From a virus (lineage: Duplodnaviria > Heunggongvirae > Uroviricota > Caudoviricetes), in the IMG/VR virus record IMGVR_UViG_2713897055_000013: 6,783 bases of DNA. One strand, 5' to 3'. The position numbers were made by a program, and so were the translations under genes. This document shows positions 1,390 through 6,783 of the stretch, in pieces (positions within the stretch are counted from its first letter, which is position 1; the number at the start of each line of letters is the position of its first letter). The notes under the pieces are model-generated. The model was not told the origin of the DNA. It saw nothing but the letters and a program-made list of their open reading frames with translations, and searched no databases.

Positions 1390-1576
1390 TTTTACACCTC
1401 ACTTTTTAAAGCGTCTCGCTTCGTCTCACTTGATATTTTTTGATGCTTTATGTGTGTGTTTCATAAGGATTTTTTTTACTCCTCACTTTTGAGCATGTAT
1501 ACAGGTGAGAAAGTGAGTAATCGTGTTAATATTTTGTAAAAACCTCACCATTACTCACTTTTTCTACTCACTTTTT
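1385..1576. repeat. Iteron-like array of CTCAC(T)n repeats flanking an AT-rich core; putative island replication origin
   Basis: CTCACTTTT-type copies at 1385-1393, 1398-1407, 1425-1431, 1482-1490, 1544-1548, 1554-1563 and 1567-1576, plus two inverted GTGAG copies at 1505-1509 and 1513-1517. AT-rich, T-run-rich spacer at about 1430-1480. The array starts at the stop of the 469-aa ATPase gene. Confidence 0.55.
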
Positions 1577-2984
1577 ACAGTGGTCCTACATCATCACCAT
1601 CAATGTAAATCACGGCGTCTTTTTCCAGTTTGGCTAACCATCGCCGCATATTTTTCACGTCATACCCAAGCCGTTTCATGTCATCACGTAACAGCGGGAT
1701 CGTGCACTTGTCGCCGTTCTGTGTGCGTGAACGGATGCACCCCCATAGTGCGGTATGGTTTTCCGTCTTGTTGCCTGCCTCCTCGATGCGTTCCAGTTCA
1801 ACGGGAGGGCGCGGCTTATCCACCACCACCAGCGACGTGATTAACTCCCCGTCAGCGTCGGTAAACAACTCCACCACGCGTAAGTCATATGCGGCTTCTT
1901 TGAGTTCCTCCGCGTCCTTCATTTTGGTGCATGAGATAACCAGCGCTTCGCTTCCTGCGTCCTCCCTGCGTATCCGGTATTCAGCATCCAGTGATGCACG
2001 AAATGCACTGGAACCGCGCGCGCCTTTCGTCTCATCCTTGCCGGAATGGTGAACCACCAGCACCGTGGCCCCTGTGCGTCGTTTCAGTTCGTCACAACCA
2101 CGGATAAACGCCCCCATATCACGGGAATCATTTTCATCATTCCCACCAAAGCAACGCGCCAGCGTATCCAGAATAATCATGCGTACAGGTTTACCCGTTT
2201 CCCGCTCCACCTGACGGGCAGCGATAACCATTTCATCAACATCAAGCGGGACCGCCGGAAAGATGGGACGGTTTACCAGATACAGATTTTTCACCTGCTC
2301 ACCGTGCACAACCTCCCAGGCTTTTACACGACGCGGAACGCCGATACCGCCTTCACCAACCACATAGAGAACAGCGCCATGCGCCACCCTGCGGCCTCCC
2401 CACTGGCGGCCCGTGGAAACGTGACACGCCCACGATCCGGCAAGGAATGATTTATAGGAACCGCTCGCCCCGTATATGCTGCAAAGCGACGATGCCGGAA
2501 TAATCCCCTTTACCACGTAATCAAGCTGTGTGTCGTATCCGGTAGATCCAACGCTCATCGGTAGCGTGGTTTTTCGCTGGGGGATTTTTTTCATGACCAG
2601 GCTTTCCCCGCGTTCCCATGCCTCCCTAAGCCGTGGAAGCTGGTCGCTCCATTCCTCCAGCAATTCGAAATTTTCAGAAAGTAGCCGCGCCTCCTGGACT
2701 CCGGCGATCGCCAGTTTCGTGGCGATGGTTAACAGCTGCGGCTCTTCAATATTTCCGGCGCGTATCACCGTCGCCCTGTATCGCCCATCATCAACAATCT
2801 GGAGGTTATCCAGTTCGCTTAACTGATAACGCCCCAGATAAACGGGAGGGACTGGATCGCCTGCTTTTTTGGCCTGTGCAATGATGTAATGCTCTGCGAA
2901 TGAGTGAGCATCAATACCCGCAAAAATAATCGCATCGGTGTATTTGTCTTGCGGTAATCGTTTTACGTTCGGTGCCAGTTTCAT
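1575..2984 (-). CDS. RecA-fold P-loop ATPase of the AAA_25 / RepA-DnaB-like type, 469 aa; putative island replication initiator/helicase
   Basis: Long ORF with GGGGT SD 6 nt upstream of the ATG. P-loop-like IYGASGSYKSF (aa 172-179), Walker B-like VRMIILDTL, then VLVVHHSGKD and GSSAFRASLDAEYRI blocks typical of RepA-like RecA-fold ATPases. About 100 aa of C-terminal extension could be a DNA-binding domain. Followed directly by the iteron array. Confidence 0.85.
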   Translation of the reverse strand: MKLAPNVKRLPQDKYTDAIIFAGIDAHSFAEHYIIAQAKKAGDPVPPVYLGRYQLSELDNLQIVDDGRYRATVIRAGNIEEPQLLTIATKLAIAGVQEARLLSENFELLEEWSDQLPRLREAWERGESLVMKKIPQRKTTLPMSVGSTGYDTQLDYVVKGIIPASSLCSIYGASGSYKSFLAGSWACHVSTGRQWGGRRVAHGAVLYVVGEGGIGVPRRVKAWEVVHGEQVKNLYLVNRPIFPAVPLDVDEMVIAARQVERETGKPVRMIILDTLARCFGGNDENDSRDMGAFIRGCDELKRRTGATVLVVHHSGKDETKGARGSSAFRASLDAEYRIRREDAGSEALVISCTKMKDAEELKEAAYDLRVVELFTDADGELITSLVVVDKPRPPVELERIEEAGNKTENHTALWGCIRSRTQNGDKCTIPLLRDDMKRLGYDVKNMRRWLAKLEKDAVIYIDGDDVGPL

Positions 2985-3736: not shown

Positions 3737-3960
3737 GGTGTACCCCTCCGCATTTTTTTTTCGTTAGAAATAAGCGTTCTTCTTTCCTGTTCATCGCTCA
3801 GGAATACGCAGACCTCACCGCTAAGGCGTTTAAGTAAGCCGATGATTGCCCCTGATTCGCTGTCGGTCATCATGCCAGGGTAATCCTCTGCCAGTGCGCA
3901 AATAACTTCGATTTGGTGGGCGCGTTCTGCTGCCTGTTGTAGTGTGATTTCCTGGCTCAT
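3685..3960 (-). CDS. Hypothetical protein, 91 aa (MSQEITLQQAAERAHQIEV...); the track's 110-aa version starting at 4017 is less likely
   Basis: ATG 3958-3960 overlaps the stop of the upstream 64-aa ORF (ATGA) and is preceded by a G-rich SD. Its last 22 codons run through an A9 tract and overlap the next gene's SD and start. Confidence 0.5.
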   Translation of the reverse strand: MSQEITLQQAAERAHQIEVICALAEDYPGMMTDSESGAIIGLLKRLSGEVCVFLSDEQERRTLISNEKKMRRGTPCAIKPHQTQQKKQCKY

Positions 3961-4151
3961 AAGTCCACCCCCTGACGAATACGGGCGGCAAATACAGCGA
4001 CACAACCGGACGGGCAACGGCTACGCGCTTCGCGTTCCGTCCAGGCGGTTACGTGGATGATTTGAGATTCTCCGGCACTCAGTGCCAGAAAACGCCACAC
4101 AAAGGCCGTTTGTGTGTGTACAAGGTGTGGGGTATGATTTACGGCAACCAT
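3957..4151 (-). CDS. Hypothetical protein, 64 aa; first gene of the leftward operon
   Basis: Strong SD GAGGAG (plus 4157-4162) 5 nt upstream of ATG 4149-4151; stop coupled to the next gene (ATGA). No family recognised. Confidence 0.5.
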   Translation of the reverse strand: MVAVNHTPHLVHTQTAFVWRFLALSAGESQIIHVTAWTEREARSRCPSGCVAVFAARIRQGVDL

Positions 4152-4224
4152 AACGGCTCCTCGTTTACGTTGTTGGTTAGAAGCCCGTTGGTGTTCATAG
4201 CGCCAGCGGGCTTTGCTTTTGTGG

Positions 4225-4294
4225 TGTCATTGGTATACATTGTCACCGTAAGGCCATTATTATACTCGAGGTATACAATGTCAACCAATGACAA
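4225..4294. promoter_or_regulatory. Divergent control region with nested direct and inverted repeats (operator candidate) and overlapping promoter hexamers
   Basis: 14-bp direct repeats GGTATACATTGTCA (4232-4245) and GGTATACAATGTCA (4270-4283). 10-bp inverted pair TGTCATTGGT (4225-4234) and ACCAATGACA (4284-4293). On the minus strand a perfect TATAAT (plus 4259-4264) and TTGACA (plus 4279-4284), but only 14 bp apart. The second repeat overlaps the SD and ATG of the RHH gene. Confidence 0.45.
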
Positions 4295-4454
4295 CAAAAA
4301 GGAAAGGTTTTCCGTACAGCTTCGTCTTGATGCTGACTTATTCGAACGCTTAAGCATCGCCATGAAAGAAGATGGCGATGATAACCGCTCAGGATGGATA
4401 AAAAGGCTTTTGCGCCGTGAGTTGGATAAACGCGGCATAGAATCAAAAGAATAA
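4278..4454 (+). CDS. Ribbon-helix-helix (CopG/Arc/MetJ-like) DNA-binding protein, 58 aa; candidate island repressor
   Basis: ATG 4278 with GAGG SD (4268-4271) 6 nt upstream. Product MSTNDNKKERFSVQLRLDADLFERLSIAMKEDGDDNRSGWIKRLLRRELDKRGIESKE shows the strand-helix-helix pattern. Divergent from the main operon with repeats over its own start. Confidence 0.6.
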   Translation: MSTNDNKKERFSVQLRLDADLFERLSIAMKEDGDDNRSGWIKRLLRRELDKRGIESKE

Positions 4455-4511
4455 TTACTATCAGCGCCGTGGCGTGAGGAACTCCGGCGCATTGCTTTAC
4501 AGGTACACACA

Positions 4512-4715
4512 ATGACCAACAAAGAATCAACCAATACACCATCGCAAAAAACGAACAGAGAGCACGAAAATATGGCGCTCGAGCATGAATCAGAAAGATT
4601 CGCACCATGCGCTTTTGTCCTTGATGAGTTTCTAAAAAAATATTCACGTTCCGAACGGATGAAAATGGCAGCACAATACGGCCCCAACAAGCAAGATAAT
4701 TGCCCACCAGCCTGA
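4512..4715 (+). CDS. Hypothetical small ORF, 67 aa, downstream of the RHH gene (weak call)
   Basis: Same strand as the RHH gene and followed by a plus-strand terminator, but no convincing SD and a hydrophilic, low-complexity N-terminus. Confidence 0.3.
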   Translation: MTNKESTNTPSQKTNREHENMALEHESERFAPCAFVLDEFLKKYSRSERMKMAAQYGPNKQDNCPPA

Positions 4716-4785
4716 TCGCGGTTATCATGCCCGGGCTTATGATTGTTGACACATACGGCGCAGCGGGTTAATTGTTCAGAAAGGT

Positions 4786-4811
4786 GGCTCCATTTCGGGG
4801 CCGCTTTTTTT
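4786..4811 (+). terminator. Intrinsic terminator closing the plus-strand RHH module
   Basis: GGCTCC (4786-4791), loop ATTTC, GGGGCC (4797-4802) with one G-U pair, then GC and T7 (4805-4811). Confidence 0.5.
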
Positions 4812-4836
4812 ATGTTCATCATTTGCCCTATATATG

Positions 4837-5045
4837 TTAAGCGGTCGTTCCGCGCGCTTCTTGTTCGCGTTCTTTCATCCATGCGATTACGTCTTCCTCA
4901 TACCATCCGCGACGGCGCAAACCGACACGAAAACCCTGCGGGAATTCTCCGGCGTTGATCATGCTTTGCAGCGTGCTGTCTGCCTTAATGTGGATAAGTT
5001 TTTTTTACTTCCTGGCGAAAGATGACTTTTTTTGATTGCTTCCAT
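4837..5045 (-). pseudogene. AlpA/excisionase-family-like small regulator interrupted by a frameshift at an A8 run (pseudogene or frameshift-dependent gene)
   Basis: ATG 5043-5045 with GAGGT SD 8 nt upstream opens a frame (MEAIKKSHLSPGSKKN...) that stops at 4959-4961. The -1 frame continues from the A8 run (plus T8 4999-5006) as ...LIHIKADSTLQSMINAGEFPQGFRVGLRRRGWYEEDVIAWMKEREQEARGTTA to a stop at 4837-4839. That C-terminal segment resembles the AlpA/Xis recognition-helix and wing region. Confidence 0.45.
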
Positions 5046-5541: not shown

Positions 5542-6783
5542 CTAAACGGCTCGGATACCCCTTTTACCACTGGCGAGGGTTACGCCCGTCGCCGCAGCCT
5601 CGACAAATTCGCCCCACCAGCGCATAAGCACGATGCGTTTTTCTATGTAGTTGCTCCGGTTGTATGCCCGTCTGACTTCGTTGGTGTCGACGTGGGCAAG
5701 TGCGGCCTCTATTACGTCCGGCTCAAAGCCTTCTTCGTTCGCTGCTGTGCTGAATATGGCGCGTAATCCATGAGACACCAGCACGCCAGCGAATCCCATG
5801 CGTCGTAATGCTGCGTTAGCGGTCTGGCTGTTCATCGGCTGCTGTGGGTCTTTCAGACTCGGGAAAACATAATCGCGGTGGTGGCTGATTGGTTTCATAG
5901 CCTCCAGCACTGCCATAGCCTGGTCACAAAGCGGGATAACGTGGTCGCGGCGCATCTTCATGCGTCCGGCGGGTATGGTCCAGCGTTGCGCTTCCATGTC
6001 GATTTCTTCCCAGCGTGCCGACGATGCTTCAACGGGACGGGTTACGGTCAGTAACTGCCATTCAATCAGTAATCTGGTCTGCCGTTCTGTTGCCGATACT
6101 GATAAAGCCTGCATAAGCTCCGGCAGCTGTTCGGGGCGGATTGTTGGCATATGTTTTTTTACAGGGGAGGGGAACGCCTTACGCACATTCATAGCCGGAT
6201 TGGCATCAATCATCCCACTATTGGCGGCGTAATCCATTACCTCATTTATACGCTGTAAAACTCGCTTGAGCGTTTCCAGGTTGCCACGTTCCTTGATGGG
6301 GGTAAGCACCTCAACGAACCTGCGAGCGGTCAGGGTGTCTATTGGCGTGTTGCCGATGAACGGGAATACATATTTTTCCAGCGATCGCCAGATGTCTTTA
6401 ATCGTATTGGGGGCCAGATTCTGGCTGATTTTCACCTGGTACCATGCTGTTGCCACATTTTCGAACGTGTTCCCTTGTCTTCGGGCCTCTGTCTCTCTTT
6501 TTTGCCTCTCGTGGTCCTGTGGGTCAGTTCCGGCACGAATTAACGCCCTGTACTCGCTACGGCGTTTTCTGGCATCAGCCAGGGAAACATCATCAAGCGA
6601 TCCAAAACTCAGCAATATTCTTTTTTTGTCCGATGGTCGGTAGTAGGAAAATCTCCAGAGTTTTGATCCGGACGGTTTGATCAGGAGAAAAAGCCCTCCG
6701 CCGTCCTGTAGGGTGTATTCCTTTTCTGCTGGTCTGGCTGCTTTGATCTGTACTGTGGTTAATGGGGGTGTTTTTCTCGCCAT
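5542..6783 (-). CDS. int: Tyrosine recombinase, P4-type integrase (N-terminal arm-binding domain plus C-terminal catalytic domain), 413 aa
   Basis: N-terminus MARKTPPLTTVQIKAARPAEKEYTLQDGGGLFLLIKPSGSKLWRFSYYRP matches the characteristic start of P4-family integrases. C-terminal HGLRAIFST (H-x-x-R) and a terminal RAYNRSNY block fit the catalytic region. ATG is 6781-6783, so upstream signals and the att site are outside the window. Confidence 0.9.
   Translation of the reverse strand: MARKTPPLTTVQIKAARPAEKEYTLQDGGGLFLLIKPSGSKLWRFSYYRPSDKKRILLSFGSLDDVSLADARKRRSEYRALIRAGTDPQDHERQKRETEARRQGNTFENVATAWYQVKISQNLAPNTIKDIWRSLEKYVFPFIGNTPIDTLTARRFVEVLTPIKERGNLETLKRVLQRINEVMDYAANSGMIDANPAMNVRKAFPSPVKKHMPTIRPEQLPELMQALSVSATERQTRLLIEWQLLTVTRPVEASSARWEEIDMEAQRWTIPAGRMKMRRDHVIPLCDQAMAVLEAMKPISHHRDYVFPSLKDPQQPMNSQTANAALRRMGFAGVLVSHGLRAIFSTAANEEGFEPDVIEAALAHVDTNEVRRAYNRSNYIEKRIVLMRWWGEFVEAAATGVTLASGKRGIRAV

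Follow-up and report, generated by a model that had tools for sequence, protein, structure and literature searches.

A divergent ribbon-helix-helix gene and a small helical protein as a candidate repressor cassette of a capsid-forming phage-inducible chromosomal island of Escherichia coli

Satellite quiescence in the Staphylococcus aureus pathogenicity islands (SaPIs) and in phage-inducible chromosomal islands (PICIs) of Gram-positive bacteria is set from a divergent regulatory region beside the replication genes by Stl or Rpr, which are helix-turn-helix proteins, and in the immI region of phage P22, the region of the small ribbon-helix-helix (RHH) proteins Arc and Mnt, a small antisense RNA (sar) acts against the ribosome-binding site of the next gene. 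PICIs of Gram-negative bacteria, whose definition includes the position of the origin at the replication gene, have so far been described as unidirectional, switched by AlpA and without an identified repressor (PMC6092414). In satellite P4 a constitutive promoter lies within eta, Kil is a truncated Eta, and translation of eta prevents termination (PMC10111431). Here we analysed a stretch of 6,783 nucleotides, IMG/VR virus record IMGVR_UViG_2713897055_000013 (the window, by which we mean this whole stretch), which judged by its genes is the left arm of an Escherichia coli phage satellite of the capsid-forming PICI type. Between alpA and a leftward replication operon the window carries two small plus-strand genes, one for an RHH protein and one, open reading frame 2 (ORF2), for a protein of 67 amino acids. 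We consider it reasonably probable that this pair is a repressor cassette, of the maintenance or immunity type, acting on an early promoter that resembles PLE of P4. The features on which this proposal draws are given here by position in the window; SD denotes a Shine-Dalgarno motif.

3957–4151, minus strand: Icd-like (P4 Kil-like) gene, the first of the leftward replication operon (NF033153, E-value 7.5e-18; also annotated in RefSeq)
4139–4822, minus strand: eta-like open frame antisense to the whole module, within a stop-free stretch from 4142 to 4897
4180–4222, plus strand: terminator-like hairpin (4180–4214) followed by UUUGCUUUU, upstream of the RHH operator candidates, identified by folding and covariation
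4228–4242, no strand assigned: left operator candidate CATTGGTATACATTG, of the form CATTG-N5-CATTG, an inverted pair with the right site
4234–4266, plus strand: candidate RHH promoter or promoters read from motifs, TATACA-18-TATTAT (4234–4263) or TTGTCA-15-TATACT (4240–4266)
4256–4284, minus strand: predicted leftward early promoter (PLE-like), TTGACA (4284..4279), 17 nt, AATAAT (4261..4256), matching the consensus at 11 of 12 positions
4276–4290, no strand assigned: right operator candidate CAATGTCAACCAATG, containing the RHH ATG (4278) and the leftward −35 TTGACA
4278–4454, plus strand: gene for the RHH DNA-binding protein of 58 amino acids, the candidate repressor
4455–4511, plus strand: spacer of 57 nt, invariant in length, with a weak hairpin (4464–4490) and an SD-like AGGT 7 nt 5′ of the ORF2 ATG
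4512–4715, plus strand: ORF2, a small helical protein of 67 amino acids with the conserved core EHESERFAPCAF-LE-FLK-Y
4778–4811, plus strand: predicted intrinsic terminator of the RHH-ORF2 transcript, a stem-loop followed by U7
4837–5045, minus strand: alpA, the Gram-negative PICI activator (Phage_AlpA match), frameshifted in the window

The RHH gene and the Icd-like gene diverge from a region of 126 bp in which the strongest promoter-like sequence points leftward, into the replication operon. Its −35 hexamer TTGACA is the reverse complement of TGTCAA inside ACAATGTCAACC, a stretch that also holds the RHH start codon and that is invariant across genera, and an equivalent of its −10 can be read by eye in the relatives examined. 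The pattern CATTG-N5-CATTG occurs exactly twice in the window, where 0.04 occurrences are expected by chance, and the two sites form an inverted pair, both lying inside a 31-nt inverted repeat (4213–4243 and 4275–4305); other genera conserve this pair. Specifically, these candidate operators bracket the leftward −10, and the right one covers the leftward −35. The left one, whose pattern is conserved across genera in non-coding DNA, lies 7–21 nt downstream of the predicted leftward start and covers both candidate −35 elements of the RHH gene (TATACA at 4234–4239 and TTGTCA at 4240–4245). Since both the start codon and the candidate promoter of RHH are overlapped by these sites, RHH would repress its own gene as well as the early operon.

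Comparison of related loci adds a pattern that we regard as the strongest evidence for a repressor. The RHH gene in the E. coli slot falls into about 16 allele classes (59-aa and 101-aa YlcI/YnfO types, and 57–58-aa types), most of which have, in the divergent region and on a common promoter scaffold, an 8–14-bp repeat of their own in two to four copies; examples are TGAAACACAC, TGAATCACA, GTGTTGAACAC, ATGGTAATTACCAT, AGGTGTCAGCCAC and TGTGCGCACA, and ATGGTAATTACCAT is found upstream of the related Pasteurella RHH gene too. Immunity regions are recognised by repressor alleles and repeats that vary together, and the other marks of such a region are present as well, with the candidate repressor gene divergent from an early operon and the repeats placed over the promoters. 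An initial annotation of this DNA, made from its letters alone, had offered a repressor as one of two readings of the RHH protein, and the operator-like repeats on the leftward promoter, varying with the RHH allele, make it the better one. Not recorded in that annotation were the allele-specific operators, the open frame on the opposite strand, and the fact that the RHH start codon overlaps the −35 hexamer of the main leftward promoter. The arrangement recalls that of Arc and Mnt of P22 and of CopG, which are also small RHH proteins (~45–85 aa) with short repeated sites overlapping divergent or overlapping promoters and with autoregulation, a resemblance that would extend to binding here if the repeats are operators. 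It differs from them in that no sequence relationship is detectable beyond the fold (13–28% identity), that the genes under control would be a replication operon and an Icd-like gene rather than an antirepressor, and that the candidate operator is a CATTG-N5-CATTG pair 48 bp apart.

The RHH gene is preceded by an SD motif, GAGG at 4267–4270, 7 nt 5′ of its start. Profile matches of its product are weak (RHH_1, E-value 0.021; NikR N-domain, 0.0012; YlcI_YnfO_N, 0.0039). An AlphaFold2 model (predicted local distance difference test score, pLDDT, of 77) has helices at residues 19–32 and 37–51; the N-terminal strand is absent from this monomer model, as is expected of a fold that pairs strands between subunits. 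The named top matches in Foldseek were all RHH proteins, namely NikR (probability 0.97, root-mean-square deviation ~1 Å, 36–40% identity), MazE9, Arc and CopG, so that by fold matches to solved RHH proteins the window protein belongs to this superfamily. At least 96 homologues, of 56–58 aa and 67–100% identity, are present in many genera, among them Klebsiella, Salmonella, Yersinia, Serratia, Morganella, Pectobacterium and Xenorhabdus. Variable sites at the three codon positions of the RHH gene number 36, 20 and 56; because third positions of both strands coincide, such counts are blind to strand, and we used the BLOSUM62 scores of the replacements instead. In the sense frame identity is 0.83 and the mean score of replacements +0.16, whereas in the antisense frame the values are 0.69 and −0.64. 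The RHH gene is thus under protein-level selection on the plus strand, and its initial call as a real gene is borne out.

Alleles of the YlcI/YnfO family (NF041551) of E. coli prophages occupy the same position in other E. coli satellites and are members of that family (E-value 2e-16; 59.6–59.7 bits in loci L002 and L003); the window protein is a distant relative by its E-value and falls short of membership, with 17.2 bits where the family cut-off is 30. The RHH allele of the window itself is rare among E. coli, with six genomes covering at least 80% of positions 4100–4900. Our literature searches found no functional study of YlcI/YnfO, and nothing relevant on RHH proteins in PICIs or AlpA satellites. 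The 'putative repressor' of EcCIMP1 is a PerC/ANR-like protein with no relation to the window RHH.

The plus-strand module had been described as inserted between the alpA-like gene and the main operon, a description that comparison with other genera overturns. In Klebsiella, Morganella, Yersinia, Xenorhabdus, Photorhabdus, Serratia, Kosakonia and others, and also in Pmp8 of Pasteurella, a distance of 130–140 bp separates RHH from the first small gene of a primase/helicase operon, to which it is divergent, and alpA, where present, is on the far side of this slot together with int. The arrangement is common to most of the species-representative genomes retrieved. Dissimilar satellites share it: a Klebsiella capsid-forming PICI with a DUF927 primase, Morganella elements with D5 or Toprim primases, and the Pasteurella capsid-forming PICI 'phage Pmp8', which was the only match to RHH when 50,697 phage records were searched with tblastn. 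In the non-Escherichia relatives RHH is usually followed by its own terminator, and in those examined neither ORF2 nor any other conserved ORF was found 3′ of it. The E. coli loci present the reverse situation, in which ORF2 is constant and the RHH gene upstream of it variable. Judged by this comparison, the module is an ancestral, conserved part of the regulatory region of this satellite class, from Enterobacterales to Pasteurella. Its proposed role matches that of Stl and Rpr, as does its location in a divergent regulatory region beside the replication genes; those repressors differ in being larger and encoded in the same direction as int, whereas here a 58-aa RHH protein is encoded opposite to int, with alpA between them. 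As a separate observation, in a locus from Leminorella grimontii (L105, 6178–6400) the RHH gene is directly followed by an array of type I-E-like CRISPR (clustered regularly interspaced short palindromic) repeats (TTTATCCCCGC..GCGGGGAAC).

ORF2 had been called weak in the initial annotation. The ORF is indeed present, and its support is better than was thought. Its frame is open in all 80 related IMG/VR loci, which comprise 39 distinct DNA alleles, and in nearly every locus exactly 57 nt separate its ATG from the RHH stop. Within the first 48 codons the ratio of nonsynonymous to synonymous polymorphism (pN/pS) is 0.44, and the variable sites at the three codon positions number 22, 21 and 34. 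Replacements are conservative when read in the sense frame, with a mean BLOSUM62 score of +0.24, and non-conservative in the antisense frame that overlaps it (−1.34). For the conserved core a helix is predicted, with a pLDDT of 84–92. A profile search of the product, which the initial annotation had proposed as a check, gave a match to phrog_21027 (E-value 2e-12) and none to a toxin or defence family: comparison with PADLOC and NCBIfam families produced no valid match, the one to Cas8g being spurious (17.5 bits against a cut-off of 125). Nor did a fold search with the ORF2 model against the PDB and BFVD, or tblastn against the 50,697 phage records, return any match. An exhaustive profile search found just 10 relatives among 1.84 billion representative proteins, and among 5,426 complete E. 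coli genomes 1,642 contain ORF2-like DNA, at up to six places per genome. By these comparisons ORF2 is a real, lineage-restricted protein, and its position, where quiescent-state genes usually sit, suggests that it is expressed in the quiescent state.

Conservation of ORF2 is limited to residues ~1–48, after which the C-terminal tails are of three unrelated kinds, and a basic patch, RKRRRRK, present in most alleles is absent from that of the window. The window's tail, NCPPA, is encoded by the DNA motif ATTGCCCACCAGCC (4700–4713), and this motif is conserved both as coding sequence, as here, and 3′ of the stop codon in other alleles (L012–L091). In locus L003 (2169–3287) the first small ORF, of 75 aa, is a distant ORF2 relative with the same motif and follows another RHH gene; tandem RHH genes, or tandem modules of RHH gene and small ORF, are present in some satellites (L003, L104, L106 and L107).

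The module ends in a terminator whose presence agrees with the initial annotation, which had placed it at 4786–4811; folding extends it to 4778–4811. On the plus strand the structure has −19.8 kcal/mol (z −5.4; 0 of 200 shuffles equally stable) and on the minus strand −7.3 kcal/mol (z −1.1), so that as predicted from folding it acts on the plus strand alone. The hairpin in the 57-nt spacer was considered as an attenuator and rejected, since its −14.2 kcal/mol is what shuffles give (z −0.6) and it shows no compensatory changes. A scan of the window with Rfam at E-values up to 1 gave chance-level matches only and no P4 CI-type RNA (C4, isrK); a match to Atu_C8 at 4723–4819 reflects the terminator and nothing more.

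A second plus-strand hairpin, at 4180–4214, has −27.1 kcal/mol (z −5.6) against −15.3 on the minus strand. It is more stable on the plus strand in all 18 loci compared, from many genera (means −26.4 and −17.9), and its stem covaries, the cells that are unpaired in the minus orientation being mostly A-C or C-A, which are G-U pairs on the plus strand. In loci with a correctly placed anchor, a TAnnnT hexamer lies 36–41 nt upstream of the conserved GGTTAGA (in the window TATGAT, 4133–4138, which resembles a −10 element), its conservation being ambiguous because it falls within coding sequence. This arrangement suggests, as a lead, that the hairpin is the 3′ end of a cis-antisense RNA of ~75 nt (about 4145–4222) lying across the SD and start codon of the Icd-like gene, which would make it comparable to sar of P22.

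Antisense to the entire module, the minus strand holds a long open frame. It starts at ATGATG (4822–4817), 15 nt past the alpA stop, and ends at TAA (4141–4139), 10 nt into the Icd-like gene, for an overlap of 13 nt, ATGGTTGCCGTAA; it is the antisense frame that shares its third codon positions with RHH and ORF2. This frame is open for 227–577 codons in 80 of 80 E. coli loci (L012–L091), exceeds 160 codons in 14 of 21 RHH-family loci, and is long in L004, L009, L011, L092, L098, L103 and L111 also. Most loci have it in frame with the Icd-like gene, an example being the O157:H7 element, which has the same gene set and a minus-strand ORF of 314 aa, and in several loci an SD and ATG directly follow the alpA stop, for example TAAAGGGGAGCATATG. 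When coding sequences alone were considered, resampling of synonymous codons indicated that plus-strand protein composition accounts for much of the antisense openness. We therefore repeated the test on whole regions, resampling the plus-strand genes synonymously and shuffling the non-coding parts, and the result was still significant, with P(no stop) 0.0046 in the window and at most 0.0012 in seven other loci; the other two antisense frames contain 7–31 stops. The translation of this frame is less conserved than the plus-strand proteins, its N-terminal parts are non-homologous between loci, and Pfam found no domain in the long minus-strand ORFs of eight loci. The translation thus looks unconstrained. 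The arrangement matches the description of eta and Kil in P4, and by analogy we read the frame as an eta-like translate-through frame for AlpA-dependent transcripts, with the RHH-controlled promoter in the place of PLE.

The likeness to the P4 immunity region (PLL-vis-eta/kil-PLE) is considerable. In both there is an AlpA/Vis homologue upstream with a long open frame directly after it, the long frame contains a strong, constitutive-looking promoter, and it ends at, or in frame with, a small Kil/Icd-like gene that is the first of the replication operon; in the window the frame following alpA does reach the Icd-like gene. The expected logic would be alike too, with read-through transcripts kept from termination by translation of their long frame. 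The systems differ in that P4 immunity is exerted by RNA, CI pairing with seqA, and no such RNA was found here in the Rfam scan, whereas the window encodes a candidate protein repressor and ORF2 antisense inside the eta-like frame; that frame, moreover, lacks a Bro/Ash domain and in the window is out of frame with the Icd-like gene.

We propose the following sequence of events. RHH dimers would occupy the two inverted CATTG-N5-CATTG sites (4228–4242 and 4276–4290) and block the near-consensus leftward promoter, the presumed driver of the Icd-like gene and the replication operon. RHH would be co-transcribed with ORF2, and the quiescent-state transcript would end at 4811; because the terminator is predicted to act on the plus strand only, leftward transcription from alpA would not be stopped there. 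Upon helper induction, transcription dependent on AlpA would cross ORF2 and RHH in the antisense direction and enter the operon; the transcripts would be translated via the eta-like frame and so guarded from Rho as in P4, and the convergent transcription would lower RHH expression. A full two-strand switch goes further: RHH would be the missing master repressor of Gram-negative PICIs with many immunity specificities, its gene lying antisense in an eta-like frame that is free of constraint on its amino-acid sequence and stays open solely so that ribosomes escort AlpA read-through past Rho, and the cis-antisense RNA would be a third layer of control. We hold this larger scheme to be possible and, on present evidence, doubtful.

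Several observations weigh against a repressor cassette as we propose it. For the window RHH, the scores for RHH_1 (15.2 bits, curated cut-off 20.5) and YlcI_YnfO_N (17.2 bits, curated cut-off 30) both fall short, the right operator candidate lies within coding sequence, so that the protein may explain part of its conservation, and either candidate RHH promoter leaves almost no leader, although an SD is present. The minus-strand frame is short, 50–137 codons, in 7 of the 21 RHH-family loci, and in the window it is not in frame with the Icd-like gene. The alpA gene is frameshifted here, and the window copy of the satellite may therefore be inactive or defective, or mis-sequenced. Expression of AlpA alone induces EcCICFT073, and the description of Gram-negative PICIs as unidirectional and lacking a known repressor comes from the same work (PMC6092414); given induction by AlpA only, the on-switch may not need a repressor, or the role of a repressor may be narrower. 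This last point also favours the view that RHH is a DNA-binding regulator of another kind, concerned with autoregulation only, with control of the putative antisense RNA or of alpA read-through, with activation, or with binding sites in the manner of the plasmid proteins ParG and omega. The roles of RHH proteins are diverse, and the sites overlap the start of RHH's own gene. Such a regulator is nonetheless unlikely, because the right site covers the −35, and both together bracket the −10, of the strongest promoter-like sequence of the region, which points into the operon, because the repeats vary with the RHH allele on a constant scaffold as they do in immunity regions, and because no ParA-type partner is present.

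Other explanations concern what the two strands encode. ORF2 might be non-functional as a protein, its frame open as a side effect of the stop-free frame opposite and its conservation due to constraints on RNA or DNA. Third codon positions coincide, so that openness of one strand favours that of the other, and by composition alone the probability of finding no antisense stop is 0.2–0.8 per ORF2 allele; the tail is unconserved and runs into a motif that in other alleles lies 3′ of the stop; relatives are few and absent outside Escherichia; and RefSeq leaves ORF2 unannotated in O157:H7. We nevertheless judge this improbable, given the invariant 57-nt distance from the RHH stop, replacements that are conservative in the sense frame alone, the pN/pS and codon-position values, the core predicted as a helix and the 75-aa relative with the same motif behind another RHH gene in L003. 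Slighter still is the chance that only the minus strand codes, for a long Eta/Icd-like protein, partly as RefSeq annotates it in O157:H7 and ATCC 25922, with the plus-strand ORFs spurious. In L111 (2331–2735; E. coli O157:H7 strain H6437) and in L112 (ATCC 25922) the RefSeq annotation has a minus-strand pseudo 'Icd-like' gene spanning the ORF2 region, the minus frame is stop-free beyond chance, and several classes have the SD and ATG directly past the alpA stop. Set against these are the protein-level selection on the plus strand for both RHH and ORF2, the RHH fold and the NF041551 matches (E-value 2e-16) of alleles at this position, the loci in which RHH is intact where the minus frame is broken (L007, L093–095, L104, L105 and L107), and a minus-strand translation without a Pfam domain and with non-homologous N-terminal parts. 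We note that in the one O157:H7 genome examined RefSeq leaves out both RHH and ORF2 despite their intact ORFs, an omission that may explain in part why these satellites have been described as unidirectional. The initial annotation had also raised an antitoxin-like RHH with an atypical partner, that is, a toxin-antitoxin pair with ORF2 as the toxin. RHH comes first and the small protein second, in what would be one transcript, as with the RHH antitoxins of type II systems, and the antitoxins MazE9, CopA, VapB and HicB are among the fold matches. Against this reading, ORF2 has no toxin- or defence-family match, relatives in other genera keep RHH and its operators with neither ORF2 nor a conserved downstream ORF, ORF2 is paired with about 16 unrelated RHH alleles, the genes are 57 nt apart with no overlap, and it is another operon whose promoter carries the operators. 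The absence of ORF2 outside Escherichia, its many RHH partners and the lack of a toxin match argue also against an allele-specific co-factor; a co-factor had been the other role suggested for it at first, and nothing links ORF2 to any one RHH allele. We regard a toxin-antitoxin pair as very improbable.

The remainder of the window is consistent with its assignment. It has the gene set of a Gram-negative (capsid-forming) PICI, comprising int, alpA, a replication gene with an iteron origin downstream, capsid genes and a tRNA-adjacent site, and beyond the Icd-like gene the replication operon continues with four small ORFs, a DUF4222 gene, the RepA/AAA_25 helicase gene, a PerC-like gene and the start of a ClpP-protease/capsid fusion. 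The features not yet listed are the following.

1385–1574, directly 3′ of the RepA helicase gene: six iteron copies of CTCACTTT (0.23 copies expected by chance)
1575–2984, minus strand: RepA/AAA_25 helicase gene, a member of the replication operon
Between the integrase gene and alpA, minus strand: hypothetical gene
5542–6783, minus strand: integrase gene

The CTCACTTT iterons are probably a replication origin of the iteron type typical of PICIs. A copy of the element that is 99.8% identical is present in strain MDP9-27, adjoining tRNA-Pro and yejM, where RefSeq annotates both RHH and ORF2, as hypothetical proteins. In comparison with L001, the window's alpA carries two 1-nt A insertions, both in poly-A runs, for which the alpA copy in MDP9-27 serves as the reference; the resulting frameshift is either a homopolymer sequencing error or the mark of an inactivated activator.

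A candidate repressor cassette is relevant to Gram-negative and capsid-forming PICIs because these satellites have so far been described with AlpA as their switch and no identified repressor. If it is true that RHH represses the early promoter, these satellites would divide into immunity groups, helper phages might induce them via RHH as well as via alpA, and engineered PICIs could be controlled through RHH. The stop-free antisense frame would tie control of PICIs to the eta/kil mechanism of P4, and it is a clear candidate for a frame that is maintained for translation itself and not for its product. Should the convergent-transcription switch prove true, the same DNA would serve as a repressor on one strand and as a translate-through device on the other.

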